Of a stretch of 32,000 nucleotides of DNA, positions 14,577 through 32,000 are shown in pieces. Every line of letters starts with the position of its first letter. Positions within the stretch are counted from its first letter, which is position 1. This DNA is from Geotalea uraniireducens Rf4 (GTDB lineage Bacteria > Desulfobacterota > Desulfuromonadia > Geobacterales > Geobacteraceae). A program made the translations under genes and the position numbers. The stretch is taken from contig NC_009483.1 of NCBI RefSeq assembly GCF_000016745.1, positions 3,270,001 through 3,302,000 on the forward strand, in the 5' to 3' direction. Under the pieces are notes generated by a model that worked only from the letters and a program-made list of their open reading frames with translations, had not been told where the DNA came from and did no database searches.

Positions 14577-14600
14577 GACTGAAAACTCAGTGTGTATATT
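14572..14600 (+). promoter_or_regulatory. Candidate sigma70 promoter TTGACG-17-TATATT for the multiheme cytochrome gene
   Basis: -35 TTGACG (14572-14577), a 17-nt spacer, and -10 TATATT (14595-14600), about 50 nt upstream of the ATG at 14652. Confidence 0.5.
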
Positions 14601-14651
14601 ACAGCGCTTGAAATGCAAATTCAGTTATTATTCCATGACAAGGAGTGCGCC

Positions 14652-15674
14652 ATGCAGCTTCGTCTCACCATCCTTACATTTCTTTTTGTTTTATCGGCAC
14701 CGCTCGTCCTCTTCGCCAAGGAGACCAAGGATGTCCAGTTTCGGCTTGAAAACGCCGAACCGGTTGTGTTCAGCCATGATATCCATTTAAAGAAATATAA
14801 CAACAATTGCAGAATTTGCCACAACGCAATTTTCAACCTTAAAAAACGCCAGCATTACACCATGGCCGAGATGGAGAAGACCAAATCATGCGGCGCCTGC
14901 CACTCCGGCGTCAAGGCTTTCAGCGTTGCCGACGAAAAGGACTGCGTCCGTTGCCATAAAGGCAAGCCGCGCAACATTACCTACAAGGTTAAAGGTGCAA
15001 CCGAGGCCATGTTCAGCCATGCGGTGCATATTGCCAAAACCGGCGGCAAATGTAAAAGCTGCCACAACGGCAAAATCATCACCGGCAAGGATGGCCGCGT
15101 AACAATGGCGCAGATGGAAAAAGGAAAGACCTGCGGCGCCTGCCATAACGGCGCGAAGGCCTTCACGGTAGCAGGTAACTGCGGCAAGTGTCACAAGGGA
15201 ATGACACCAAAGGATATCGCCTTCAAAACCAAGGGAATCAGCGGCGCAACCTTCAGCCACACTTTCCACACCGGCGTTTACAGCTGTAAAGACTGCCACA
15301 CCAAGATCTTCCCATTCAAAGCCGGAGCAAAGCATTTCACCATGGGTGATATGGACAAAGGCAAATCGTGCGGCGCTTGCCACAACGGCAAAGATGCATT
15401 TGCCTCCAGTGGCGACTGCGAAAAATGCCATACCGGTTTCAAACCAGGTAACATTACTTTCAAGACCGAATCCGGAGATGCCAAATTCAGCCATGAATTC
15501 CACCTCGGCATGTATAAATGCACCGACTGCCACACCAAACTGTTCCCCTTCAAGGCGGGAGCAAAACACTTCACCATGACGCAGATGGAAGAGGGAAAAT
15601 CGTGCGGTACCTGCCACAATTCGAAGGATGCTTTTAGCGTAAAGGGTGACTGTGAAAAATGCCACAAAATGTAA
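14652..15674 (+). CDS. Periplasmic dodecaheme cytochrome c built from four c7-type triheme domains
   Basis: Twelve CxxCH motifs were counted, arranged as 4 x (F.H..H...CxxCH...T/HxTM..M..GK(S/T)CGxCH...AF...CxxCH). The signal peptide is MQLRLTILTFLFVLSAPLVLFA. The start is set at the ATG at 14652, with AAGGAG 6 nt upstream, rather than the ORF-track 14592. Confidence 0.9.
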   Translation: MQLRLTILTFLFVLSAPLVLFAKETKDVQFRLENAEPVVFSHDIHLKKYNNNCRICHNAIFNLKKRQHYTMAEMEKTKSCGACHSGVKAFSVADEKDCVRCHKGKPRNITYKVKGATEAMFSHAVHIAKTGGKCKSCHNGKIITGKDGRVTMAQMEKGKTCGACHNGAKAFTVAGNCGKCHKGMTPKDIAFKTKGISGATFSHTFHTGVYSCKDCHTKIFPFKAGAKHFTMGDMDKGKSCGACHNGKDAFASSGDCEKCHTGFKPGNITFKTESGDAKFSHEFHLGMYKCTDCHTKLFPFKAGAKHFTMTQMEEGKSCGTCHNSKDAFSVKGDCEKCHKM

Positions 15675-16966: not shown

Positions 16967-18424
16967 TTATTCAAATGGGAAGCTGGAAATAGCGGTTATT
17001 TCTATTCTTTGCTCATTCCCGGTGCGAAGGTCGGCAGCAGAAACCTGGAGAATGCCGTCGACGTTAATAGTGAATGTCACCTCTATCTTCGGATCCCCCT
17101 TCGGTTCAGGAGGGATGTCCGCAAGCTCAAAAATGCCGAGACTCATATTATCACCGGCAGTCTCTTTCTCTCCCTGAAGGACGTGGATACTGACCGACGT
17201 CTGGTTATCGGCAGCGGTTGTAAATATCCTGTTTCTTGAGACGGGAACTGTGGTATTTCTGTCGACGATCCTGGTAAATGTCCCTCCTTGGGTCTCAATC
17301 CCCAGGGAGAGCGGCGTGACGTCCAGCAAAACGACGTCGCTGAACTCACCGGCAATGATCCCTCCCTGTATCGCAGCGCCAATGGCTACCACCTCGTCAG
17401 GGTTAATGCCGTCATGGCAAATCTTCGAATCGCCGAACAAATTCTTTGCAAGTTCCAGCACCGCGGGCATCCGGGTCGAACCACCAACGAGAATAACCCT
17501 GTCGATATCCTCGAACCTGAGCCTGGCATCGGAAAGCGCCTGCAGGGTGGGCCCTACCAGCTTTCGGAGGAGAGAGTCGGTTAATTCCTCGAAATCTTCC
17601 CGCGAAAGGCGTATAGGCAATATACTCCCATCCCTGGCATCTCCCCCCGTCAGGGCGTTAAGGGGAATGGTTATCTCAGCAACCATTTCACGAGACAGCT
17701 TTTTCTTAGCGAGTTCCGCCGTCTCTCTCAGGAACGATAAGGCCGCTTTATCTCTCAAAGGATCGATTCCGGTCTCCAGATGTATGATTCCGGCCAGATG
17801 CTTGACGATCCTTTGATCCCAGTCATCCCCGCCCAGATGGGTATCACCGTTGACCGCCATGACCTCGAATATCCCTTGGCCAAGTTCCAGGACGGAAACA
17901 TCGAATGTACCGCCACCCAAATCCCAGACGAGTACCGTATGGATCTCCTCCTTGTCCAGCCCATAGGCTAAAGCTGCGGCGGTCGGCTCGTTGATTATCC
18001 TTACCACATCCAGGCCGGCCACGATCCCGGCTTCCTTTGTGGCTTCGCGCTGTTCGTTGTTGAAATAGGCGGGGACCGTGATCACAACCTTCTCTATCCT
18101 TTCCCCCAGATACGCTTCCACATCTCCGACAACTTTGCGAAGGATCATCCCCGATATCCCTGCCGGTGTGTAAACATTTCCCCCCGCATGAAACCTTTGC
18201 AATGAGCCCATATACCTCTTGACCGAGACGATGGTCCCCTCGGGATTGCCGATCGCCTGGTGCAAAGCACCCTTTCCCGCCAGCATCCCGTCATCCGTGA
18301 AGGCCACCACCGAAGGGGTCAGATTTTCACCGTCCCCATTGGGAATAACCACAGGGCGTCCATTATCGAGAATGGCAACAACCGTATTGGTGGTCCCCAG
18401 ATCGATACCGATTATCCTGGACAT
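16967..18424 (-). CDS. Hsp70/DnaK-family chaperone lacking the C-terminal helical lid (485 aa); last gene of the gvp operon
   Basis: [35 protein letters not shown] and the interdomain linker [16 protein letters not shown] are present. The SBD-beta region runs to [29 protein letters not shown], and the protein ends ~12 aa later. The ATG at 18424 has GGAGG 4 nt upstream and overlaps the upstream gvpJ/M gene by 13 nt. Confidence 0.9.
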
Positions 18425-18651
18425 GGTTCCTCCGTAGCCCGAATTTCCTTGTCCCACTCCTCCATGACGCCATATTTGGTCATCGTTTCCATTCCGGCCA
18501 CGGCTGCCCTCAGGTTGACGCCGACCAAGGGGATGCCCGCAATGGAGATAACCAGGTCCGCATCCACTACGACCCCCTTGTCGAGGACCCTCTCCAGCAC
18601 ATCAACCAGCGTAATATTTCCTTTGCTTGCATGTTCCATATTCACCGTCAC
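18412..18651 (-). CDS. gvpJ/M: GvpA/J/M-family gas vesicle protein (minor structural paralog)
   Basis: The core TLVDVLERVLDKGVVVDADLVISIAGIPLVGVNLRAAVAGMETMTKYG matches the GvpA-family fold signature. The GTG start overlaps the upstream stop (GTGA). Confidence 0.85.
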   Translation of the reverse strand: MTVNMEHASKGNITLVDVLERVLDKGVVVDADLVISIAGIPLVGVNLRAAVAGMETMTKYGVMEEWDKEIRATEEPCPG

Positions 18652-19397
18652 ATGTCGACAAAGCTGTACGGCGGCCAGGGGCCGGTAGGGCGTACTGCGA
18701 TACCTTCCCTGAGGTTGATGATCTCCAGTTCCGCTGTCATCTCATCACGCCTTTCCCCGGGGACCAGGACCGACAGGTTCATGATCATCCGTACGCCGTT
18801 ATCTGCCGCCTTCACCTCTTCAATGATTATCCGTTCCGCCAGCTCCTCGATCCTCTGGTAGATATTCTCGAAATACCTTTCCTTCTCCCTTGCCATCTCG
18901 CGCTTTAACGCCTTTTCCAGGAGCTGGCCATGCATGTAAGCCGCTCCTGTCCCACCCTCCGTCTTCGCCTTGAGTTCCCTGAGGGCCGGCACACTATCCA
19001 CAAGCCTTCCTGCAACAAGATCCTCGTCCCAGAATACCTGGACACCGTATTCTTCCCTGCCCCTCAACCGGCCGATACTTTTTCGCAGTTCCCCGTGGTT
19101 TCCCCCCAGCCATCCATTGAGATCATCCGCCCCCCCCTTGATGACGGTATGGAATCTTACCGGGAGGATTGTTCCGAACCGCCTCCATGCCGTTTCAACC
19201 ACCTTCTGGTGGGAGACGACCCAGCCGATCATACTTTCTCTCTCCCAACAATCGGGCGGGTCTCCCTGGTAATTATGGACAATCGCAGACAGGCCTTCAA
19301 AATGAACAGTATAGACCTCGCTCCCATCTATCCCGATCCTTCCGAGCGAAATTTCCTCGTCCCCCTCCGCCACGCAATAGATATATCTACCTTCCAT
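18648..19397 (-). CDS. gvpF/L: GvpF/GvpL-family gas vesicle assembly protein
   Basis: The N-terminus is YIYCVAEGD...VYTVHFEGLSAIV, and the C-terminus is ...NLSVLVPGERRDEMTAEL...VRPTGPWPPYSFV, typical of GvpL/F. The start is set at the ATG at 19397 (GGAG 7 nt upstream), overlapping the end of gvpK. Confidence 0.85.
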   Translation of the reverse strand: MEGRYIYCVAEGDEEISLGRIGIDGSEVYTVHFEGLSAIVHNYQGDPPDCWERESMIGWVVSHQKVVETAWRRFGTILPVRFHTVIKGGADDLNGWLGGNHGELRKSIGRLRGREEYGVQVFWDEDLVAGRLVDSVPALRELKAKTEGGTGAAYMHGQLLEKALKREMAREKERYFENIYQRIEELAERIIIEEVKAADNGVRMIMNLSVLVPGERRDEMTAELEIINLREGIAVRPTGPWPPYSFVDM

Positions 19398-19677
19398 GCA
19401 AGTCTCCGCCAAGCACCCCTTCCACCAGGTTGTCCAGACTATCCCTCACAGACCTGACCGCCTCGGTAACACCGTTATCCTCTTTTATCTGTTCCACGAC
19501 CCTGTCAAACTCCATGAGGGACTTTCCCAGCCTTTCCACCTCCTCCGCGTTCAGGCTTCCGTTTTCCATCCGCCTTACGGCCTGGGTCTTGAGAAGATCC
19601 CTGATTATCTCCACCAGGGCAAGGACGAGCCCCAGAACCCCCTGCTTGAGATTGTCCTGCTCGATGTCGATATTCAT
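19387..19677 (-). CDS. gvpK: Gas vesicle protein GvpK
   Basis: GVLGLVLALVEIIRDLLKTQAVRRMENGSLNAEEVERLGKSLMEF is the characteristic GvpK core. Confidence 0.85.
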   Translation of the reverse strand: MNIDIEQDNLKQGVLGLVLALVEIIRDLLKTQAVRRMENGSLNAEEVERLGKSLMEFDRVVEQIKEDNGVTEAVRSVRDSLDNLVEGVLGGDLHGR

Positions 19678-19692
19678 GGGGATATTTTACTC

Positions 19693-20058
19693 CTAGAGAC
19701 TATAGTCGGTTGTATGGGCTGCAATCTTCGCCCTGGCGCTCTCCCAACCGCACCAGGGACAACCTGCGGCGATCAGTTCATCCACAGAAACCCTCTTTCC
19801 GCATTCGGGGCAGGTTTCCTTGGTCGTGATCCCCTCTTTCCAGGCAGGAGCCTCAAGATTGATCCCTGAAGGAAACGCCAGACCATACCTGGCCGCTACC
19901 TCAAAAGAGGCAATGCTCGCCCTGATCTTGATGCTGAGGAGTTCAGTCCCGACAATGGATATGGCAATGTCCGCATTGATGACTATTCCCTTGTCCAGGA
20001 TCCTGTCGAGCACATCCAGCAAGGAAGCGCTGTTGTTTATTGTCCCTTCTATGGCCAT
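19693..20058 (-). CDS. gvpJ: GvpA/J-family gas vesicle protein with a C-terminal CxxC-x13-CxxC zinc-ribbon extension
   Basis: The GvpA-family core is SLLDVLDRILDKGIVINADIAISIVGTELLSIKIRASIASFEVAARYG. A ~50-aa tail follows, containing CPECGKRVSVDELIAAGCPWC. The AAGGAG RBS lies 6 nt upstream. Confidence 0.85.
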   Translation of the reverse strand: MAIEGTINNSASLLDVLDRILDKGIVINADIAISIVGTELLSIKIRASIASFEVAARYGLAFPSGINLEAPAWKEGITTKETCPECGKRVSVDELIAAGCPWCGWESARAKIAAHTTDYSL

Positions 20059-20068
20059 CCGTTTCTCC

Positions 20069-20374
20069 TTAGTCCCTTAGAAAAATTATTTGCATGTTTT
20101 TTGCCAGCGTTGTCCGGTTTGGTTTGTGCATCAAGGTTGTTAAGCCCCATTAGGGGCGTTCGAATGTAGCCGGGGGATTCATCCCCCGGATGAGATGCTA
20201 TATTTCCCCACGTCACGTACGTGACGTGATGATATTTCGCCTGGATGACCGGGGAATGAATTCCCCGGCTACCAGTATTCTGTCCCTACGGGACGTAAGC
20301 AAAAACCAAACCGGACAACGCTGGTTTTTTGCGAAGAATTTTTCGTGAAGGGACTTATCCCGTTCATCGGGGTT
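20069..20374. repeat. Copy A of a 78-bp intergenic module, split into 35-bp and 43-bp halves by a MITE insertion
   Basis: 20069-20103 plus 20332-20374 are 100% identical to 25247-25324, by direct base-by-base comparison. Confidence 0.9.
20104..20324. mobile_element. MITE-like non-autonomous element (221 bp) with 22-bp perfect terminal inverted repeats and a 7-bp target-site duplication
   Basis: The TIR is CCAGCGTTGTCCGGTTTGGTTT at 20104-20125, with its reverse complement at 20303-20324. The flanking TTTTTTG is duplicated (20097-20103 and 20325-20331). An empty-site paralog at 25270-25285 carries a single TTTTTTG. The element has no ORF. Its interior is a chain of hairpins, including the perfect 20-bp palindrome CACGTCACGTACGTGACGTG. 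Confidence 0.8.
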
Positions 20375-20403: not shown

Positions 20404-22362
20404 TTACGCACCCGTCAGTTGACCAAGGGCTTCCACCCCCTTGACCGGACTCAGAAACAGCGGCACAACAGCAACGTCGTAGTCATTCCCCCACTTTGCC
20501 GTCACCTGCCGCAGATACTTTTCCTGCTCTCCCTTGCAGCAGCGGCATCCGGCAGGAGGGGTCACCATGTTGACGATTATATGCCTTGACGGGATACCCA
20601 ATCTCCTGATGCCGGAAAGGAGGCGTTCCGTTTCAAGGATGGCAAGGGATTCCGGAATGGTAACGGCAACAAATTCAGTTTGCAGGGAGTCGGTAAGGGC
20701 CTTTTTCACATTCTTTACATCCCTGAGCAGATTCATGATCCCTTCGGCGGCACAACCAAGCCGGACGATCTCCTTGTATTTAAGCAGCAGCCTGAGGATC
20801 GCCTTCAACCATTCAAGGACGATCTCTGGGGTTTCGAGGAAACGGAGCGCATGACCGGTGGGCGCAGTATCGATAACGAACAGGTCGTACGCCCCTCTCA
20901 GTTCGAGCATCTTCTTCAGGCCCATGATCTCGTCCAGTCCCGGGGGGGAAAGCTCGATAAGCCCCAGCATCACCTCTTTGTCAAAGGCGATATCTCCCCC
21001 TCCGGCGACGAAGGGGGAGAAAACCGCCTCGATGTCCGCGCAGTATTCTTTCTGGAATACGTTAAGCATGCGGGAGGCGTCCATCTCCAGTGCGAAGAGA
21101 TGTCCCCCCGCCGATGAGTCGATGATCGGCGTGACGGCATTTCCTATCGTGCGGTCGAAACAGTCCGACAACGAATGTGCGGGATCCGTGGAAAGTATCA
21201 GGATCTTCCTCTCCGGATTTTCCCTTGCCATATAAAGCGCTGTCGATGCGGCCATAGTGGTCTTGCCGACTCCTCCCTTGCCGCCGAAGAGAAGAAACTC
21301 CAGACCGGGTTTGCGCGCAAGCTCCGCTATGGCATTGCGAAAAGCCGCAAGGGTATAGTCGGGGGGAACGGGTGGTGAGGCAACATCTTTCCCGGCCGGA
21401 GCCGCGATTTTTACCGGCGCAAAGAGAAGCTCCGCAAATTTGCACAGGTTTTCAAATCCGTTGATTTCATGGTGGATAAGAGGGGCGAACACGAGATTGC
21501 AGTCGGCGAACCTCTCTCCGATTTCCGCCAGATACCCTTCGATCCCTTTCCTTCGCGAAGAACAGAACGGACAGTCCCCTCCCTCGACGACGCGATTGAC
21601 GATCAGGCTCCGCACCGCTATCCTATACTCCTTCAGGGATGCCAGCAGCCTGCCGGTTTCTTCGATCGCCGCCGGTTCGGGGATAGTCACCGGGACAAAT
21701 TCGGTCATCATGCCGTCCTTGAGAAGGGAATCCACTCGGTCCAGGTCGTCCGTCATCGTCTTCAGGAACTCATCCGTCGCGTCCCTCACGTACCGTCCCT
21801 TGAATCGTCTCAGGAGTAAACGGTGCTTCTCCTGCATCAGGTCAAAAACGGCAATCCATTTCTTCATCTGGGCCGGGAGGGCCAAAAGCCTCAGCGTGTG
21901 GCCGGTCGGCGCGGTATCGAGGACAATCAGGTCGAATTCGCCGGACTTCAAAAGCCTGACCACTTCAATGACCGCCATCACCTCGTCAAGCCCCGGCAGC
22001 GACAGGGAAAAGAACCCTTCGACGTCTTCCCGGTCAAAATAGGTCCCCCTTTCCGCCAGCTTTTTCATCACCCCTTCGTATTTTTTTCTGAAGTCCTGGA
22101 AGAGCTTGCGAGCGTCCATCTCCAGCAGCCAGAGATTATCAAGCTCATCGACCCGTGTGATATCCCCCCCGACGCTCCTCTCGAAACAGTCGCCCAGAGA
22201 ATGAGCCGGATCGAGGGAAATGAGAACCACCTTTTTCCCGGGCCTGAGCCGCGCCAGGTATATGGACGCAGCAGCTGCAGATGTGGTTTTTCCGCACCCC
22301 CCCTTTCCGCCGAACATTATCAGCCGGAGAGCCGGGTTATCAAGGAGCTTGGAGTTAGCCAC
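20404..22362 (-). CDS. Tandem-duplicated ArsA/Get3-family P-loop ATPase (pseudo-dimer) with a CxxC motif in each half
   Basis: It has two deviant Walker A loops (FGGKGGCGKTT; FGGKGGVGKTT), two DPAHSL motifs and two DTAPTGHTLR/DTAPTGHALR switch II motifs. CPFC follows IVNRV in half 1, and CRCC follows IVNMV in half 2. GTG start 6 nt after the gvpO stop. Confidence 0.9.
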   Translation of the reverse strand: MANSKLLDNPALRLIMFGGKGGCGKTTSAAAASIYLARLRPGKKVVLISLDPAHSLGDCFERSVGGDITRVDELDNLWLLEMDARKLFQDFRKKYEGVMKKLAERGTYFDREDVEGFFSLSLPGLDEVMAVIEVVRLLKSGEFDLIVLDTAPTGHTLRLLALPAQMKKWIAVFDLMQEKHRLLLRRFKGRYVRDATDEFLKTMTDDLDRVDSLLKDGMMTEFVPVTIPEPAAIEETGRLLASLKEYRIAVRSLIVNRVVEGGDCPFCSSRRKGIEGYLAEIGERFADCNLVFAPLIHHEINGFENLCKFAELLFAPVKIAAPAGKDVASPPVPPDYTLAAFRNAIAELARKPGLEFLLFGGKGGVGKTTMAASTALYMARENPERKILILSTDPAHSLSDCFDRTIGNAVTPIIDSSAGGHLFALEMDASRMLNVFQKEYCADIEAVFSPFVAGGGDIAFDKEVMLGLIELSPPGLDEIMGLKKMLELRGAYDLFVIDTAPTGHALRFLETPEIVLEWLKAILRLLLKYKEIVRLGCAAEGIMNLLRDVKNVKKALTDSLQTEFVAVTIPESLAILETERLLSGIRRLGIPSRHIIVNMVTPPAGCRCCKGEQEKYLRQVTAKWGNDYDVAVVPLFLSPVKGVEALGQLTGA

Positions 22363-22368
22363 ATGCCC

Positions 22369-22671
22369 CTACTCTTCCACTAACGTTTCGGCGCGCCTGC
22401 GCATCCCTTTGCGGCTGAATTCGAGCAGATTGCCGTGATTATCCAGTACGGCCTCATAGGTTGCAAGGATATCCATGTTATCAGGTATGACGCGCTTTTC
22501 CACCAGCTCGACCGACACTCGCCATCCCATCTCATCCTTCGCAGTCTTCAGCGTGGATGAAAGCTCCAGGCCGGTCAGAACGCTGAGCTCACTTCTTGCC
22601 TTCTGGATGATATTCCCGATAGACATCGCCATTTTTGCCGCCTCCGGCTGTTCAGACGAATCGACTTTCAT
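22369..22671 (-). CDS. gvpO: Gas vesicle protein GvpO
   Basis: The core LTGLELSSTLKTAKDEMGWRVSVELVEKRVIPDNMDILATYEAVLDNHGNLLEFSRKGMRRR matches my recollection of the GvpO family. The ATGA overlaps the gvpG stop. Confidence 0.8.
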   Translation of the reverse strand: MKVDSSEQPEAAKMAMSIGNIIQKARSELSVLTGLELSSTLKTAKDEMGWRVSVELVEKRVIPDNMDILATYEAVLDNHGNLLEFSRKGMRRRAETLVEE

Positions 22672-22907
22672 AATTCCTCTTTACGTTCCATGATCTCTTC
22701 CAGCCTGGCCATCAGTTCCGCTTCCTTGCTCAGATACTCTTCTTCGGTCATCTCATCGAGCTCAAAGCGCATCTGTAGTTCGAGAAGTTCCTCATGTATC
22801 CTGGAGTCGTCGGTCATCTCCGACTCAGCCATGTCCTTGAGTTTATCGGCTACCCAGACCAGCCCTTTTATGGGTGAAAGGAGAATGTCATCCAACAAAA
22901 AGATCAT
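22668..22907 (-). CDS. gvpG: Gas vesicle protein GvpG
   Basis: MIFLLDDILLSPIKGLVWVADKLKDMAESE...EEEYLSKEAELMARLEEI is the typical GvpG N-terminal hydrophobic helix plus acidic helix. The ATGA overlaps the upstream gene. Confidence 0.85.
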   Translation of the reverse strand: MIFLLDDILLSPIKGLVWVADKLKDMAESEMTDDSRIHEELLELQMRFELDEMTEEEYLSKEAELMARLEEIMERKEEL

Positions 22908-23881
22908 TCGACGACCCTTACCATTATGGCATCCTTCCCGAAAGCGAGGTTGCTGCAGCCCGTCAGGATTTTGTATGCCCGGCTGAACTTCTCGAAAATC
23001 ATCTGCGCATCGGGGTCGCCGGAATTATTGTCCGGGTGATACTTCCGGAGCTGCTTCCTATATGCCTTCCTGACCTCGTCCTTATCATCTCCAGGGACCA
23101 CGCCGATGATATTCATCGCTTCCTCAATCTCCCCGGCCCCTATTCTGCATATTTCCAGGGTATTGAAGCTGTGAGGAGGAAGCGGGCCTATGACCCGGAA
23201 GTTTATTCTGCCGCAATACCTCTTATCCAGCCCTTCTATCTGCTCATCCAGCGCGTTTTTCTTCTCACTCTCCACAAGAAAAGCCACGTTCAGCAGCATC
23301 CTGTCATCGAAATGCTCGCGGATCCTCTGCTCAAGGTGATGCTCCTTAAGAGCGAACAAAATTTCGTTCCCGACCCTCCCATTCTCCTCCTCCAGGGCCA
23401 CCCTGACCATTTTTCCCAGCTCTATGGCCGCCTCCCTAAGCTCTTCCCGGGATGCAGTTGCAATCTCTTCCTTGAACCGTCGAATCTCGTCTCTCTCCCC
23501 CAGTTCCCTCAATGTCGAATCCAGATCATTCCACAAGGCTATCAAATCCACCTCGACCTTGCCCGCCATGCTGTCGATCGCGTTTTTGAAGCAAGGGTAT
23601 CCCGATTCCAGTATTTCGAGAAGCTCCCCGTCATCCATGGCCGATGTCCCGAATTTTATCGGGACAGCCGTACACTCCTTCATAATCCCCTCGATCAGCG
23701 ACTGGTGGTTTGCCAGGTGCCGGACAAGGATATCCTTGGGAAGGGATGCGTAGTTTATGGGTGATGATTCCTTTACCACCAGGGCGATGTCGCGGTACGG
23801 CACGAGATAGGCGCAATCCCCCGAAACCGCCGCATCCCCGCCATCACGGCTTACAACGCAATAAAGATGCTTTGCCATCAT
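22904..23881 (-). CDS. GvpF/GvpL-family protein fused to a C-terminal DnaJ (J) domain
   Basis: Residues 1-245 are GvpL/F-like (HLYCVVS..., LLNVAFLVESEKKNALDEQI..., FRVIGPLPPHSFN). Residues ~250-305 are EIEEAMNIIGVVPGDDKDEVRKAYRKQLRKYHPDNNSGDPDAQMIFEKFSRAYKIL, with the diagnostic HPD tripeptide. Confidence 0.85.
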   Translation of the reverse strand: MMAKHLYCVVSRDGGDAAVSGDCAYLVPYRDIALVVKESSPINYASLPKDILVRHLANHQSLIEGIMKECTAVPIKFGTSAMDDGELLEILESGYPCFKNAIDSMAGKVEVDLIALWNDLDSTLRELGERDEIRRFKEEIATASREELREAAIELGKMVRVALEEENGRVGNEILFALKEHHLEQRIREHFDDRMLLNVAFLVESEKKNALDEQIEGLDKRYCGRINFRVIGPLPPHSFNTLEICRIGAGEIEEAMNIIGVVPGDDKDEVRKAYRKQLRKYHPDNNSGDPDAQMIFEKFSRAYKILTGCSNLAFGKDAIMVRVVE

Positions 23882-23888
23882 TGTCCCT

Positions 23889-24440
23889 TCAGGGCTTCTT
23901 CCTGGCCTTCTTTTTTGAAACTCTGATATCGAGGATGCCGTTTTTGTAAGAGGATTTGAGTGTGGCCGGATCGACAGACGATGGCAGGGGAATCTCTTTC
24001 ATGTATTTCCTGTCCTTATTCCCGGCCTTGAGGAAAAGGGTATCGCCTTTAACATCGATGCTGATGTGCTCATTTTCCACACCGGGCATCTCCGCAACCA
24101 CCACCACGTGATCCTTCTCATCGAACACGTCTATCATCGGCTCCCTGACCTCCTCCACCACAGGCCCTTTTGCGGTGTCCCTGACGTTACCGAAGGACTC
24201 TACAACGGGCTTGCCGCCCATGGTCCGCACCGTAAAGCCGTAGACACCTTTCGCCTCCTTAGGCATTCCCCTTATCTCACCCTCCTTGCGGATCTCTTCC
24301 CCCTTTTCAGCCGCTGTGGCGGCAAGGTCAATAAGGGTTCCAAGCCCCTTGAAGAGCCCTCCAAAAGAGACTTTGCCCAGACCGAAATCGATCTCTACCC
24401 CCTCTTCCTCTTTTTCCGCTTTCTTTTTTCTCTCAGCCAT
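23889..24440 (-). CDS. Hsp20/alpha-crystallin small heat-shock protein (GvpH-like position)
   Basis: The alpha-crystallin domain is IDVFDEKDHVVVVAEMPGVENEHISIDVKGDTLFLKAG...EIPLPSSVDPATLKSSYKNGILDIRV. A Lys/Glu-rich N-terminus precedes it. Confidence 0.88.
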   Translation of the reverse strand: MAERKKKAEKEEEGVEIDFGLGKVSFGGLFKGLGTLIDLAATAAEKGEEIRKEGEIRGMPKEAKGVYGFTVRTMGGKPVVESFGNVRDTAKGPVVEEVREPMIDVFDEKDHVVVVAEMPGVENEHISIDVKGDTLFLKAGNKDRKYMKEIPLPSSVDPATLKSSYKNGILDIRVSKKKARKKP

Positions 24441-24467: not shown

Positions 24468-25217
24468 TCATTTCCATTCCACGACTAGGTTCACAAAATT
24501 GAAAGGCGGTATTGGACCGACATATTTGAATATGAGCCTATCCTTGTTTGCGGCGTCGAGTTCCGTCATTCTCTCGTCAAACTCCCTTATCCGCCCACGT
24601 TCTACAAGGAAAGCCGCATTTAAATTCATGTTGTCTCCATGGAGTTTATTTACGCTGGTTCTGCGGGATATCGGCTTCAACTTGTCGAGGATATATCCCG
24701 CTTCCCGTTCCTTTCTGGCCACAAGCGCCGCCTGGACCATCCGGCCGAGGTTGATCCTGTCAGCGTAACACTTATCCGGCGGGACCGAGGCTATTTTCCC
24801 CTTCAGTCTCTTTATTTCCGGTTCCGTTTCTCCGATTTCATGAAATACCTCGTTTAAATCCTTCCAGAGGGACTTCACCCCGAGCTCCACCATGTTGTCC
24901 ATATCCCTAAGGAGTTCCTTGAACTCCATATATCTCTTTCTCAACACCCTGCGGATATCTTCCACGCTTTCAGCGACGGTGCAGAACCTCACAGGGAGGA
25001 CCGTATGATCCTTCATGACCTCTTCGATGACCTTCTGATGGGCCAGCAGATTTTCTCTGGTAAGGGTGTATTTGATCACAGGGGTCCCGCTGATAACTGC
25101 AGCGATGTTCTCGCAATTTATGGTGGTTACCACATCTCCACGGCCACCGATCCCCATGGGACCGAAATTTCTCGCGTCATCAGTCCCTATGATGCAATAT
25201 AAATAATTGTTTTCCAC
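24468..25217 (-). CDS. gvpF/L: GvpF/GvpL-family gas vesicle assembly protein
   Basis: YLYCIIGTDD..., LLAHQKVIEEVMKDHTVLPVRF, NLNAAFLVERGRIREFDERM and FKYVGPIPPFNFV. The GTG start has GGAGA 6 nt upstream. Confidence 0.85.
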   Translation of the reverse strand: MENNYLYCIIGTDDARNFGPMGIGGRGDVVTTINCENIAAVISGTPVIKYTLTRENLLAHQKVIEEVMKDHTVLPVRFCTVAESVEDIRRVLRKRYMEFKELLRDMDNMVELGVKSLWKDLNEVFHEIGETEPEIKRLKGKIASVPPDKCYADRINLGRMVQAALVARKEREAGYILDKLKPISRRTSVNKLHGDNMNLNAAFLVERGRIREFDERMTELDAANKDRLIFKYVGPIPPFNFVNLVVEWK

Positions 25218-25246
25218 CCATGGTCTCCGAAATACAAAATTCCCTC

Positions 25247-25324
25247 TTAGTCCCTTAGAAAAATTATTTGCATGTTTTTTGCGAAGAATTTTTCGTGAAG
25301 GGACTTATCCCGTTCATCGGGGTT
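25247..25324. repeat. Copy B (intact) of the 78-bp intergenic module; contains an interrupted palindrome
   Basis: Identical to the split copy A. On the minus strand it reads AGTCCCTT-cac-GAAAAATT-(21 nt)-AATTTTTC-t-AAGGGACT, that is, two 8-bp arm pairs. It lies immediately upstream of the RBS of the downstream gvp gene. Confidence 0.9.
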
Positions 25325-25342: not shown

Positions 25343-25660
25343 TCAATAATCCATAACCATCGTCTTGAATTTTTCCTTTGCCCCCTTCGGAGCATTTTCT
25401 TTGGAATTCCTTTTCCCGTCTTCCTTCAATACGGTTTTTCCAATATTTATTATTTCTTTTCCGAGATCTTTCAGGTCATCCTCTATACTCTTCTTTCTCT
25501 TGAGCAGGGCGTGCAACTCCAATTCCAGTTTGGTCCTTTTCCGCGTCAATACATAGAGGTCAAGGTAGCGGTTCACCGAAGCCTTCGGCACGGAACGGAT
25601 TTTCGTTCTTGGGGCGGTTCTTGGAGCGGTTCTTATAATTGATCCACTTGTAATGCTCAC
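25343..25660 (-). CDS. Small basic coiled-coil protein in the gvpV position (tentative GvpV-like)
   Basis: GTG start with a GGAGGG RBS 7 nt upstream. It has an N-terminal RTAPRTAPRT repeat and then RYLDLYVLTRKRTKLELELHALLKRKKSIEDDLKDL. It sits directly after gvpN, as gvpV does in Serratia/Anabaena-type clusters. Homology is not verifiable here. Confidence 0.5.
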   Translation of the reverse strand: MSITSGSIIRTAPRTAPRTKIRSVPKASVNRYLDLYVLTRKRTKLELELHALLKRKKSIEDDLKDLGKEIINIGKTVLKEDGKRNSKENAPKGAKEKFKTMVMDY

Positions 25661-25686: not shown

Positions 25687-26709
25687 TTACAGCATGCTGA
25701 CTGCCTTGTCACCCACCGCTATTCTCTGGCCGACCTTAAGGGACGGTTTCGTATCCGTATTCATTTCCCCGGCTTCAGGGTTACTCCCACAGTGCCTGTC
25801 AACCAGTTCAGCTATGAACTCCTTAACCTTTTTTATATTGGCATCGCTTCCCACCCTGCTCGTTTCCGAGGCAAGTACATCAGTGCAGATACTCCTGAAT
25901 ATTTTGTTCCCCGCTTCGACCGCGGCCTTTCTTACCTTCGCAGTCTTTGCAATCATGATGCATCCCCTCACAGTGGGTGCAAACTCGTATTTCCCGGAAT
26001 CCCTGAGACTCCTGACGATATTCACAATTTTTTCCGAATCGTGCAGGGGCAATCCCGACTTTGCCGAGGTTATAGCCATTTCCGTCTCCTTGTCAGGATA
26101 GCTGATGTCTATCGTGACCATCCTGTCCCGCAGAGCGTCCTGGCTCCTGTAGACTCCCGCATACTCCTCGGGATTGCTTGTAAAGATCGCGACAAAATCC
26201 GGGTGCACCTTGAGATACCCTTCTCCCCCCCTTGCAGTGGGCATGCCCATCATCTTTTCCTGCAGGACAGACAGGAGAACGTTATTGGCTTCGGGCCTGG
26301 ACCTGGTAAATTCGTCATAGATCAGAGTGAACCCTTTTTTGCAGGCCAGCGTCAGCCGGCTGTCTATCCAGGAACTGTTCATGCTCTCTTCAGTCTTCAG
26401 GACTGAATGAATGAAGTTGTCCACGACCTTCTTTTTCCTGTAGCCATGCTGCCCCCCCACCAGGTCGGATGTGGAATGCTCCTCGTCACCATGCATGATA
26501 ACGAGCGGCCTGCCGAGCTTACTGGCAACATGCATGGCAATTGTGGTCTTGCCTGTACCTGAGGTCCCCCTGAAGTGGACGGGGAAACCAGCAGCAATAT
26601 AGGCAAGAGCCCGCTCCGTCACATCCCGGACATAGTCCGTTTCCACAAAGTTCGGCAAAGAACGGGGCTCTAAAACGGTCGCCAGTACTTCAGCATTTTC
26701 TTCCTGCAT
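25687..26709 (-). CDS. gvpN: Gas vesicle AAA+ ATPase GvpN (CbbQ/NirQ/NorQ/GvpN family)
   Basis: Walker A FRGTSGTGKTTIAMHVA, Walker B LIYDEFTRS, and an arginine-finger region. The size is ~340 aa. The AAGGAGAG RBS lies 6 nt upstream. Confidence 0.9.
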   Translation of the reverse strand: MQEENAEVLATVLEPRSLPNFVETDYVRDVTERALAYIAAGFPVHFRGTSGTGKTTIAMHVASKLGRPLVIMHGDEEHSTSDLVGGQHGYRKKKVVDNFIHSVLKTEESMNSSWIDSRLTLACKKGFTLIYDEFTRSRPEANNVLLSVLQEKMMGMPTARGGEGYLKVHPDFVAIFTSNPEEYAGVYRSQDALRDRMVTIDISYPDKETEMAITSAKSGLPLHDSEKIVNIVRSLRDSGKYEFAPTVRGCIMIAKTAKVRKAAVEAGNKIFRSICTDVLASETSRVGSDANIKKVKEFIAELVDRHCGSNPEAGEMNTDTKPSLKVGQRIAVGDKAVSML

Positions 26710-27094: not shown

Positions 27095-27430
27095 TTATTG
27101 TTTCGCACTTTTCCTGGCAGCGCCGCCTCTTTTCGCCTGCATAGTGGAGCCCAAGTGCCCCCATGCAGCAATTGCGTCGTCGTGCTCCTTTTTGAAACCC
27201 TTGAGAAGATTGCTCGTCTCTTTCTTCATGGAGTACCTTGCCTTGGAAAGATCCTGCCTGAGCTGTGACGCCATCTCACCCCGCTCCTTGTGAAGATCGT
27301 CAAGCATCCTGTGGACATCGTCAGTCATTTCGTGGACATCCTTTTTGATGGATGCAAGAACAGCCATCCTTTCATCAAAAGAAGCGGTAATATCCTGGGC
27401 TAGTGCCTTGAATCCGTCTACTCTTGCCAT
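27095..27430 (-). CDS. Hypothetical charged alpha-helical protein (111 aa) inside the gvp operon
   Basis: AAGGAG RBS 8 nt upstream. The sequence is rich in heptad-like charged helices (DERMAVLASIKKDVHEMTDDVHRMLDDLHKERGEMASQLRQDL). No family is recognised. Confidence 0.6.
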   Translation of the reverse strand: MARVDGFKALAQDITASFDERMAVLASIKKDVHEMTDDVHRMLDDLHKERGEMASQLRQDLSKARYSMKKETSNLLKGFKKEHDDAIAAWGHLGSTMQAKRGGAARKSAKQ

Positions 27431-27457: not shown

Positions 27458-28105
27458 TCAACCCTGCCATGCCGTCTTGTCATAGAAACTGAACACCCCT
27501 TCCCACTGAGCGGCCACTTCCCGGCGTATCCTGTCAAACTCATCCAGTATCCGGTCTATCTCGTCACTGGATTCCCTGTCACGGTTACCGAGCGTCTTAA
27601 CCACGGATTTCAAGTCCTTTATCCTTACCTCCTCCCCTTTGGACAAAAGATTTTTCAATGCCGCTATCAACTCTTCCTGCTCCAGCTGGAACTTCATCAG
27701 TGACTTTGCCACCTCTTTCTCTCGTTCCCTGAGCCGCAAAAGGATATCCCTCTTCATTATTTCAAAATCGGCAGGGTTGCAATTCCCGGTGAGGACCTTC
27801 TTCAAGATGAGGATCATCTCCCCTTCTTCCTGCCATATAGTTTCCAGCTGCTGCCGGGTTTTTGTCTCTCTTTCTCTCCTCTTGGCCAGGACGGTTTCCA
27901 TCAGGGCATCAAAGTCCTTTTTTCTCATCCCCCCATGCCTCGAGAGATTTTCCTTCAAACGTCTGCTCATCTCATCCTGTTCCCTGCAATAGTTATTCAC
28001 ACGTTTCATTGCTTCAACAACGAGAGTATTGACAAGCTTTAACCGCTTTTCGTACGATTTTATGATCTCCAACCCTATAGTTCTCAAAGGTTCCTGAAAC
28101 TCCAT
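27458..28105 (-). CDS. Charged helical repeat protein in the gvpC position (candidate GvpC functional analogue)
   Basis: The ATG at 28105 has GGAG 6 nt upstream. There are two clear ~47-aa internal repeats: KKDFDALMETVLAKRRERETKTRQQLETIWQEEGEMILILKKVLT and PADFEIMKRDILLRLREREKEVAKSLMKFQLEQEELIAALKNLLS. It lies directly downstream of gvpA. Confidence 0.6.
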   Translation of the reverse strand: MEFQEPLRTIGLEIIKSYEKRLKLVNTLVVEAMKRVNNYCREQDEMSRRLKENLSRHGGMRKKDFDALMETVLAKRRERETKTRQQLETIWQEEGEMILILKKVLTGNCNPADFEIMKRDILLRLREREKEVAKSLMKFQLEQEELIAALKNLLSKGEEVRIKDLKSVVKTLGNRDRESSDEIDRILDEFDRIRREVAAQWEGVFSFYDKTAWQG

Positions 28106-28195
28106 TTCCAACTCCGCTCATAATCCTTGTACGGTTTCGCGTCTACTGTTTGTGTGAATGGAGATGGAGACATGCTTGAGTAACTTGTTTATAAT

Positions 28196-28253: not shown

Positions 28254-28472
28254 TTACGCATGCATTGCCGTCGCAGTGGTTGTAAGGCCTACTGCCTCGG
28301 CATACTTAAGGAAAGTATCCACAGAGGCAACAACGACCCTCGCTTCGATAGCGAGAAGCTCGATCCCCACTAAGGAAACCCTTGCCCAAGCATCGATACA
28401 TACGCCCTTGTCCAGGATCCTGTCGATTACCTCGACGAGACTGGAAGATGCATTTGTTTTCTCAACTGCCAT
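28254..28472 (-). CDS. gvpA: Major gas vesicle structural protein GvpA
   Basis: [63 protein letters not shown] is nearly identical in pattern to canonical GvpA. The start is set at the ATG at 28472, with an AGGGGG RBS, not the GTG at 28481. Confidence 0.95.
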
Positions 28473-28617
28473 GATATTCACCCCCTTTCTTTGAACTGGC
28501 GTGACACTCTAAACCCTTTATTCCATCGATCGATACGGAGCGATCCGTCTCACGCAAATCTTTTCCGCATGCGTCGTCGGTTACTTCAAAGTTTAGAGAT
28601 ATCTAATAAGAGACTAT

Positions 28618-31515: not shown

Positions 31516-32000
31516 TTATCTGCGCCCTTCCATGAAGACTTTCATCGCCTCCTGGAAATGAGCTGCGGATATTTTCAACGTCTTGGGATCGTCTGCGCCT
31601 TTCTCGACGAACTCGCAGATTGCAATAATGGTAGCTTTTCTGCACAGGAACTCTATATCGGCGCCGACCAGTCCTTCCGTTTCAGCGGCAATGGACTTCA
31701 GATCAACGTCCTTGAGAAGCGGTTTGCCTCTCGTATGAACCTTGAATATCTCCAGGCGGGCATCTTCGCCGGGAGGCGGGATCTCGACGAGGATATCGAT
31801 GCGCCCCGGCCTCAGGAGAGCCGGGTCTATGATATCCTTTCTGTTGGTGGCGCCGAGGATGAAGACCCCCTTCAGCTCTTCGGTCCCGTCTATCTCGGTC
31901 AGGAGCTGGCTTATGACCCGCTCCGACACATGGGAATCTCCGCCCCCTCCCCTTGCAGGAGCAATTGCGTCCATCTCGTCGAAAAAGAGTATGCAGGGGG
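31516..32000 (-). CDS. AAA+ ATPase, CDC48/VCP-like subfamily (C-terminal part; gene continues beyond the window end)
   Basis: The Walker B region ILFFDEMDAIAP runs to the window edge. Sensor-1 is GATNR, the second region of homology/arginine finger is DPALLRPGRID, and a helical lid follows (GADIEFLCRKA). Confidence 0.85.
   Translation of the reverse strand, partial: PCILFFDEMDAIAPARGGGGDSHVSERVISQLLTEIDGTEELKGVFILGATNRKDIIDPALLRPGRIDILVEIPPPGEDARLEIFKVHTRGKPLLKDVDLKSIAAETEGLVGADIEFLCRKATIIAICEFVEKGADDPKTLKISAAHFQEAMKVFMEGRR

Follow-up and report, generated by a model that had tools for sequence, protein, structure and literature searches.

Why does a gene annotated for arsenite efflux lie in the middle of a gas-vesicle (gvp) gene cluster? 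The question is raised by a 32,000-nt stretch of Geotalea uraniireducens Rf4 (contig NC_009483.1, positions 3,270,001 to 3,302,000; in the following called the window), in which a tandem ATPase of the ArsA/Get3 fold is encoded between gvpO and gvpJ. The open reading frame (ORF) is intact, starts with GTG and encodes 652 amino acids. An exact-sequence look-up identified the product as WP_041245472.1 and ABQ27002.1, the protein called Gur2 by Castillo & Saier (2010). The GenBank record ABQ27002.1 counts 637 amino acids from Met16 and carries the label "arsenite efflux ATP-binding protein ArsA", and the RefSeq start gives 652 amino acids. Because homologues conserve residues N-terminal to Met16, their alignment supports the longer version. 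We conclude that the protein is very probably a Get3-like ATPase dedicated to gas-vesicle clusters, and that the chance of its acting, by analogy with Get3, as a client-holding chaperone for GvpA-family proteins falls slightly short of even.

The protein is built from two halves that are 37% identical to each other across 315 amino acids (E 3e-54), and the Pfam model ArsA_ATPase (PF02374) matches it twice (E 7.7e-131). Both halves contain a Walker A motif (GKGGCGKT at residues 19–26 and GKGGVGKT at 361–368), a switch I motif (DPAHSL at 51–56 and 393–398) and a switch II motif (DTAPTGH at 149–155 and 498–504). Further downstream, IVNRV is followed by CPFC (264–267) in half 1 and IVNMV by CRCC (606–609) in half 2. 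The catalytic motifs of both halves are invariant among 27 diverse homologues, and both nucleotide sites are intact as judged by sequence. The internal duplication, the doubled motifs, the single Cys pair per half and the location between gvpO and gvpJ had all been noted in a first-pass annotation of this DNA, and each was recovered here.

The arsenic label could be examined with curated models. The ATPase passes TIGR00345 (GET3_arsA_TRC40) with 441 bits against a cutoff of 135 but fails the ArsA equivalog TIGR04291, reaching 208.8 bits where the cutoff is 650 and a control, the classical ArsA at locus L080 (matching E. coli ArsA 1f48 with E 5e-173), scores 784. In an alignment with six classical ArsAs, L080 included, the equivalents of the metalloid-binding triad (C113, C172 and C422 in E. 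coli) are absent from the ATPase: LPGLDE stands in place of CTxEI, the segment after switch II lacks Cys, and SPPGLDE replaces SPCTEEI. The lack of this triad in Gur2 was reported before (PMC2963123). Screening of all sizeable ORFs in the window revealed no ArsB, Acr3, ArsC, ArsD or ArsR. At another locus, the same genome encodes a separate classical ArsA, Gur1, which was analysed alongside ArsD (PMC2963123).

That the protein is a true arsenite-stimulated pump subunit, as in the original GenBank annotation, would agree with that name, with its tandem build and ArsA-like size, and with ArsA structures being its best whole-chain structural matches. Against this stand the replacement of the metalloid triad by Leu, a non-Cys residue and Pro, the equivalog score far below the cutoff, the 32 kb free of ars genes and the presence of Gur1 elsewhere in the genome, so that we assign it next to no probability and regard it as effectively refuted. 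The absent triad and the missed TIGR04291 cutoff were the grounds on which we rejected it. The first-pass annotation had likewise favored a Get3 type without arsenic-resistance neighbors over an arsenical pump, a view that would have been in doubt had an ArsA Cys triad and nearby ars genes turned up; the triad is absent and the window is free of ars genes. Labels such as "ArsA" or "arsenite efflux ATPase" beside gvp genes are wrong, and the gvp-linked ATPase family looks systematically misannotated. A gvp-adjacent homolog in Nodularia, nsp15480, has been listed under arsenate genes (PMC3610870).

Each half is 34–36% identical to the archaeal Get3 proteins 3ug6 (M. jannaschii) and 3zq6 (M. thermautotrophicus), aligned end to end with E values from 1e-41 to 1e-51. 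The ATPase shares with them the P-loop, the switch motifs, the position of CxFC and the PGxDE motif, which is of the Get3 kind and lies where ArsA has CTxEI. The segment following switch II, counted in alignment columns, spans 64 and 57 amino acids in the two halves, compared with 70 in archaeal Get3 and 50 and 38 in ArsA, and its hydrophobic fraction is 0.44 and 0.49. In length and hydrophobicity, the helical subdomains thus appear to be of the Get3 kind. In contrast to the tandem ATPase, the archaeal proteins are single-domain homodimers or tetramers without gvp context, and their groove segment is longer and richer in Met. ArsA of E. coli and L. ferriphilum (1f48, 9nbo) is a fused pseudo-dimer like the ATPase and provides the best whole-chain structural match, but shares only 22% identity, has C113, C172 and C422 and no CxxC, carries shorter helical subdomains, lies in an ars operon context and arose from an independent duplication. 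The best sequence match in the PDB is Chlamydomonas ArsA1 (5zme; 1e-61). Together with the cyanobacterial "Group 7" proteins, ArsA1 is a tandem Get3 type with inserts in both halves, as is the ATPase; these relatives lack CxxC, and ArsA1 targets tail-anchored proteins to chloroplasts. Some cyanobacterial tandem Get3 proteins (L028, L054 and Nodularia nsp15480) are gvp-linked like the ATPase.

We then asked how widely the association with gvp genes extends, since conservation of the gene neighborhood had been proposed as a check, and found the association borne out. In all six contigs from closer relatives (L001, L003 and L085–L088, originating from Geobacter, Actinomycetota, Zixibacteria, "Ca. 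Euphemobacter" and two metagenomic bins), the ATPase gene directly follows gvpO and clusters with gvpG, a gene for a GvpL–J-domain protein, genes for Hsp20 and a Cdc48-like AAA+ protein, gvpJ, gvpK and gvpL, and often an Hsp70 gene. Among the 80 reference-genome loci listed, which are a sample rather than a census and include no Geobacter genome, at least 44 have several gvp genes within 10 kb. Within these loci and the six contigs, gvp-linked relatives span about 17 phyla, among them Chloroflexota, Patescibacteria, Planctomycetota, Acidobacteriota, Verrucomicrobiota, Gemmatimonadota, Myxococcota, Cyanobacteriota, Bacteroidota, Chlorobiota, Nitrospinota and Spirochaetota, as well as a metagenome-assembled genome (MAG) of the Altiarchaeota. 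The loci without gvp linkage comprise archaeal single-domain Get3, classical ArsA, a third tandem group, several cyanobacteria and one locus from Myxococcaceae (L041).

Among the loci listed, tandem forms usually follow gvpG or gvpG-gvpO, with gvpG the commonest upstream neighbor. Single-domain gvp-linked forms have an Hsp20 gene immediately before them in all 11 cases, with gaps of −2 to 117 nt. Their hosts belong to Bacteroidota, Chlorobiaceae, Pirellulales, Nitrospinota and Spirochaetales, and CxFC is kept in some of them and lost in others. In a neighbor-joining tree of single domains, a rough, distance-based tree without support values from which coarse groupings were taken, all gvp-linked proteins group together. 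N-terminal halves cluster with N-terminal halves and C-terminal halves with C-terminal halves across phyla, which argues for one old duplication, independent of that of ArsA.

Three further observations concern this distribution. The Altiarchaeota MAG (L008) carries a tandem CxxC Get3-like gene beside gvpN and a GvpJ-like gene; since this locus is archaeal, the gvp-linked tandem form appears not to be confined to bacteria, although the contig measures 4.2 kb and contamination of the MAG is possible. The Myxococcaceae locus (L041, 9902-11905; Citreicoccus inhibens) encodes a tandem protein with two CxxC motifs flanked by a sigma-54 response regulator, a PrkA kinase and a trypsin-like protease, with no gvp genes within 10 kb, so this architecture also exists outside gas-vesicle clusters. 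In three of the six relative contigs, all from uncultured lineages, the extended gvp cluster contains a second, longer tandem ArsA/Get3 paralog of about 706–768 amino acids.

In alignments, the two Cys pairs coincide at each position with the CxxC of archaeal Get3 (3ug6, 3zq6): dCpfCssrr of half 1 stands opposite qCdfCrarr, and gCrcCkge of half 2 opposite qCdfCrar or dCefCnar. In Get3 dimers, one zinc is held jointly by two CxxC motifs at the dimer interface (PMC6593721). An AlphaFold2 model of the ATPase was obtained with a predicted local distance difference test score (pLDDT) of 81 and a predicted template-modeling score of 0.77. Its single halves match MtGet3 (3zq6) with template-modeling (TM) scores of 0.83–0.84, and the whole model best matches the closed-state tandem ArsA 9nbo (TM 0.70/0.79; open states 0.61/0.70). 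As modeled, the halves appear to pack like a closed ArsA/Get3 dimer, from which we infer that the four cysteines should come together. By analogy, they probably form one intramolecular metal site, most likely Zn(Cys)4, where the two halves hinge.

The four cysteines are each conserved in at least 120 of 121 sequences (the query and its best 120 database homologs, 46–98% identical), far more often than by chance. The consensus in both halves is CxFC; the Phe is conserved in 117 of the 121, and C608 takes its place in the CRCC of the ATPase. Of 126 complete tandem representatives (clustering at 50% identity), both CxxC motifs are present in 96, neither in 22 and one in 8 (odds ratio 132); among the genome loci listed, the numbers are 23, 11 and 1. 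Shared ancestry inflates both sets of counts. The rough tree places the loss of both motifs in at least three separate lineages and shows one intermediate (L027). Such paired keeping and loss is the pattern expected of one shared four-Cys site.

Both the type of ATPase and its link to gas vesicles are already published. Castillo & Saier (2010) described Gur2 as a two-domain protein in a gvp cluster with Hsp20 and without arsR or other ars genes, and reported, from four phyla, two-domain ArsA homologs that lack the ArsA cysteines and lie in gvp clusters together with Hsp20 (PMC2963123). The ATPase is thus the very same protein treated among their gvp-associated "Cluster 4/6" homologs, and its two domains and location inside a gvp cluster with Hsp20 agree with the definition of Cluster 4. 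Their account did not touch on CxxC or zinc, on features of the Get3 type or on a mechanism as chaperone, and it covered four phyla against about 17 here. Farkas et al. (2019) defined a bacterial tandem Get3 "Group 8" of 17 sequences in which both domains carry an insert and a CxxC; they regarded these proteins as unique across the domains of life and functionally unknown, with a general chaperone role as one possibility (PMC6593721). They scored the group as positive for the insert and hydrophobic groove and as lacking the residues that bind Get1, Get2 and Get4 (PMC6593721). The ATPase has the features of Group 8, namely a double domain, insert and CxxC in both domains and no alpha-crystallin domain; no Get1, Get2, Get4 or Get5 homolog was noticed in its gvp cluster.

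Group 8 was drawn from Myxococcales and "some Proteobacteria", and the review makes no link to gas vesicles (PMC6593721). The Myxococcaceae example L041 lacks gvp linkage, and the rough tree places it outside the gvp-linked proteins. Get3-alpha-crystallin fusions are common in other bacteria (PMC6593721); in these Get3d or "Group 6" proteins, a Get3 ATPase and a C-terminal alpha-crystallin domain share one chain without gvp context, whereas here the small heat-shock protein (sHsp) is encoded by a separate gene in the same operon, or directly upstream in the single-domain gvp-linked forms. The novelty implied by the first-pass annotation did not hold, as both halves of the idea are contained in these two papers (PMC2963123; PMC6593721). 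Their observations were never connected, and the chaperone idea is a joining of the two rather than the discovery of a new object. A full-text search found no literature joining "gas vesicle" with Get3, no earlier statement of the chaperone hypothesis was found in the literature on gas vesicles with Get3, "tail-anchored" or ArsA, and no experiment on any gvp-linked Get3-like member was found in the literature searched. New here are a much broader taxonomic range, gvp-linked forms with one domain that are tied to Hsp20, descent from one ancient duplication, the joint retention or loss of the two CxxC motifs and the evidence from curated models against a role in arsenic resistance.

A mechanism can be proposed by analogy with Get3. 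The two subunits of the usual Get3 homodimer are fused in one chain, and ATP binding would close this pseudo-dimer around the putative Cys4 metal hinge, creating a composite hydrophobic groove that would shield hydrophobic segments of GvpA, GvpJ and the GvpM/S-like protein. Hydrolysis, or contact with GvpO, GvpG, GvpF, GvpL or GvpK, would then release the client at the growing vesicle, and the ATPase would cooperate with the Hsp20, J-domain-GvpL/Hsp70 and AAA+ proteins of the cluster. The three GvpA-family proteins are the best candidate clients because they contain the most hydrophobic segments of the operon; the highest-scoring 19-mers lie in GvpA and GvpJ (Kyte–Doolittle 1.75 and 1.76), and hydrophobic stretches occur in GvpG and GvpK as well. 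Because gvpO and gvpG are conserved neighbors of the ATPase gene, their products are candidate partners. The need for chaperoning of GvpA and GvpJ has been discussed (PMC11445434). The Get3-type helical subdomain and the Hsp20, J-domain, Hsp70 and Cdc48-like neighbors support a chaperone for GvpA, GvpJ and GvpM, which by analogy we consider plausible. The complete explanation, a fused Get3-type ATPase dedicated to gas-vesicle biogenesis and acting by this mechanism, is about as probable as its negation.

Several points weigh against this explanation. The well-studied gas-vesicle clusters of Halobacterium, B. megaterium, Serratia and A. flos-aquae function without such a gene, which makes it an accessory one. 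For G. uraniireducens, gas vesicles are a prediction from its genes. GvpF and GvpG have been proposed as GvpA chaperones (PMC11445434). CxxC has been lost in gvp-linked cyanobacteria, Chlorobiaceae and some Acidobacteriota and Gemmatimonadota, so the site is dispensable for the gvp-linked role in several lineages. The CxxC loops of the model have moderate confidence (pLDDT 57–66), the Met content of the putative groove is 0.02–0.05 compared with 0.07 in archaeal Get3, and in G. uraniireducens itself a transposon-like insertion, described below, parts the ATPase gene from gvpJ.

Part of the same evidence could be read as a nucleotide-dependent switch or scaffold, equally dedicated to gas vesicles but not holding clients, that organizes, positions or times a GvpF/G/L/K/O complex or regulates GvpN or Hsp70. 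MinD/ParA proteins and GTPases of the signal recognition particle type are models for this among SIMIBI proteins. The deviant Walker A with its signature Lys is as in MinD/ParA, to which there are weak family matches, the conserved neighbors are gvpG and gvpO and not gvpA, and Castillo & Saier proposed solely that the protein "energizes a biogenic step" (PMC2963123). However, full-length similarity to Get3/ArsA exceeds that to MinD/ParA by orders of magnitude, the Get3-type helical subdomain is enlarged and hydrophobic, and coupling to sHsp genes is tight, with Get3-crystallin fusions existing elsewhere (PMC6593721); we therefore consider a pure switch unlikely. A general cytosolic Get3-like chaperone or factor for tail-anchored proteins, with an incidental or regulatory position in the gvp cluster, would be in line with the role suggested by Farkas et al. 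(PMC6593721) and with the cyanobacterial tandems L020, L022, L026, L029 and L032 and with L041, none of which has gvp genes within 10 kb. It is nevertheless improbable, given that outside cyanobacteria nearly all sampled clade members on adequate contigs lie inside gvp clusters and that local gene order is conserved across about 17 phyla.

The remaining alternative concerns the cysteines, which might coordinate a bridging Fe-S cluster or serve chiefly as a redox switch instead of a structural zinc hinge, making the ATPase a stress- or redox-gated chaperone or sensor in the vesicle programme of an anaerobe. Nbp35/Mrp/ApbC-type SIMIBI ATPases are precedents, as is yeast Get3, which upon oxidation becomes an ATP-independent holdase. 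A fused pseudo-dimer requires no metal to hold its halves together, and CxxC is missing from ArsA and cyanobacterial tandems (PMC6593721), yet most lineages keep the Cys site, which suggests a role beyond dimerization. Many hosts are anaerobes (Geobacter, Dehalococcoidia, Anaerolineales), and C608 creates a local CxCC variant. Conversely, the CxFC...R/K motif and its flanks resemble the zinc sites of archaeal Get3 and not those of Mrp/Nbp35, and matches to the MrpORP and NifH models span only the P-loop, which leaves the Fe-S or redox version with a rather small probability.

All genes of the cluster lie on the minus strand. The order begins with the Cdc48-like AAA+ gene at the edge of the window and continues with a histidine kinase, a sigma-54 response regulator, gvpA, the genes of a 217-amino acid coiled-coil and a 111-amino acid protein, gvpN, the gene of a 105-amino acid protein, gvpF and the Hsp20 gene. 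The GvpL/F-J-domain gene, gvpG, gvpO, the ATPase gene, gvpJ, gvpK and gvpF/L follow, and the third GvpA-family gene and a lid-less DnaK-type Hsp70 complete the cluster (Table 1). Because a sigma-54 activator adjoins, a sigma-54 promoter was sought, but the consensus TGGCAC-N5-TTGCW was not found with up to one mismatch. A full-length version of the truncated Cdc48-like AAA+ is present in the related gvp clusters L001, L003 and L085–L088.

Table 1 Features of the tandem ATPase, its gas-vesicle cluster and related loci (window positions unless a locus is named; aa, amino acids).
Feature	Position	Strand	Remarks
Tandem Get3/ArsA-fold ATPase	20404..22362	minus	652 aa; WP_041245472.1; "Gur2"
Half 1, residues 1-316	21415..22362	minus	full-length alignment to MjGet3/MtGet3
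Half 1 motifs	Walker A 22285-22308; DPAHSL 22195-22212; DTAPTGH 21898-21918	minus	
CPFC (C264, C267)	21562..21573	minus	Get3 CxxC equivalent
Inter-half linker, residues 317-336	21355..21414	minus	predicted disordered, pLDDT <50
Half 2, residues 337-652	20407..21354	minus	alignment to archaeal Get3
Half 2 motifs	Walker A 21259-21282; DPAHSL 21169-21186; DTAPTGH 20851-20871	minus	
CRCC (C606, C609)	20536..20547	minus	Get3 CxxC equivalent; C608 in place of conserved Phe
Cdc48-like double-AAA+ ATPase, C-terminal part	31516-32000	minus	cut by window edge
gvpA	28254..28481	minus	75 aa; candidate client
217-aa coiled-coil protein	27458-28111	minus	without family assignment
111-aa protein	27095-27430	minus	without family assignment
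gvpN	25687..26709	minus	AAA_5 ATPase
105-aa protein	25343-25660	minus	without family assignment
gvpF	24468..25217	minus	
Hsp20/alpha-crystallin protein	23889..24440	minus	also passes Pfam ArsA_HSP20 ("HSP20-like domain found in ArsA")
GvpL/F fused to DnaJ J-domain	22904..23881	minus	also in L001, L003, L085-L088
gvpG	22668..22907	minus	
gvpO	22369..22671	minus	6 nt upstream of ATPase start; adjacency kept in closer relatives
gvpJ	19693..20058	minus	C-terminal CPEC...CPWC zinc ribbon; candidate client
gvpK	19387..19677	minus	
gvpF/L paralog	18648..19412	minus	
Third GvpA-family paralog, GvpM/S-like	18412..18651	minus	79 aa; candidate client
Short DnaK-type Hsp70	16967..18457	minus	496 aa; DnaK model 1-498 of 625
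MITE-like element, 219 bp	20105-20323		between ATPase stop and gvpJ start; one copy in window
79-nt intergenic repeat	25246-25324; split copy 20068-20104 + 20324-20374		100% identity
Second tandem paralog	L003 20541-22034; L085 13121-15427; L087 19473-19959		
Single-domain Get3-like loci after Hsp20	L034, L036, L038-L040, L042-L047		
Separate zinc-ribbon ORFs	L003 12577-12885; L085 8333-8542; L087 8404-8598; L088 8360-8563		

The Hsp70 covers positions 1–498 of the 625 of the DnaK model and thus has no C-terminal lid. The GvpL/F-J-domain fusion was present in all close relatives examined and the Hsp70 in three (L001, L087 and L088). This recurrence suggests that an assembly factor uses its J-domain to recruit a dedicated Hsp70. 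The 217-, 111- and 105-amino acid proteins are all conserved in the cluster of the Geobacter MAG (L001). Relatives of the 217-amino acid protein also occur in gvp clusters of Bacteroidota, Chlorobiaceae and Pirellulales, which makes it a candidate for an accessory role, GvpC-like or otherwise. A zinc ribbon similar to that of GvpJ is encoded by a separate small ORF in related clusters, located after gvpJ or between gvpG and gvpO. Just beyond the gvp cluster, a multihaem cytochrome c7-type protein with four c7 repeats is encoded on the plus strand (14592-15674), which is typical of Geobacter and unrelated to the ATPase.

The insertion between the ATPase gene and gvpJ resembles a miniature inverted-repeat transposable element (MITE). 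Its 21-nt terminal inverted repeats (CAGCGTTGTCCGGTTTGGTTT) are perfect, 9 bp of target sequence are duplicated (GCAAAAAAC, operon strand), and three palindromes lie inside it; the insertion may be polar on gvpJ-K-F-M-hsp70. In the Geobacter MAG (L001), the ATPase gene and gvpJ abut directly. The element sits in the apical part of the second copy of a 79-nt intergenic repeat that folds into a stable predicted hairpin (−25.3 kcal/mol, z = −4.7). An Rfam scan of the window, this repeat included, gave no match; the repeat is a candidate for an element of mRNA processing or stability or for a REP-like (repetitive extragenic palindromic) sequence.

The gvp-linked Get3 family ties together two questions, namely how GvpA-family proteins, which are extremely hydrophobic, stay soluble and reach the growing vesicle, and what bacterial Get3 homologs do, because an orphan tandem class gains candidate clients and a phenotype of vesicles or no vesicles. 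It is possible, though on balance doubtful, that Get3-type ATPases have a widespread second, membrane-free job, capturing GvpA-family proteins and delivering them to the shell at the gas-water interface. The fused Get3 would then capture the hydrophobic core of GvpA-family proteins together with the sHsp, the J-domain GvpL/Hsp70 and the Cdc48-like unfoldase, and the intramolecular Cys4 site would serve as hinge or redox gate. If this is true, the clients of the bacterial tandem Get3 class would be identified, and delivery of clients by Get3 would extend beyond membranes. Co-expression of the ATPase and its chaperone neighbors might also ease the proteotoxic stress that limits heterologous production of gas vesicles for ultrasound imaging.

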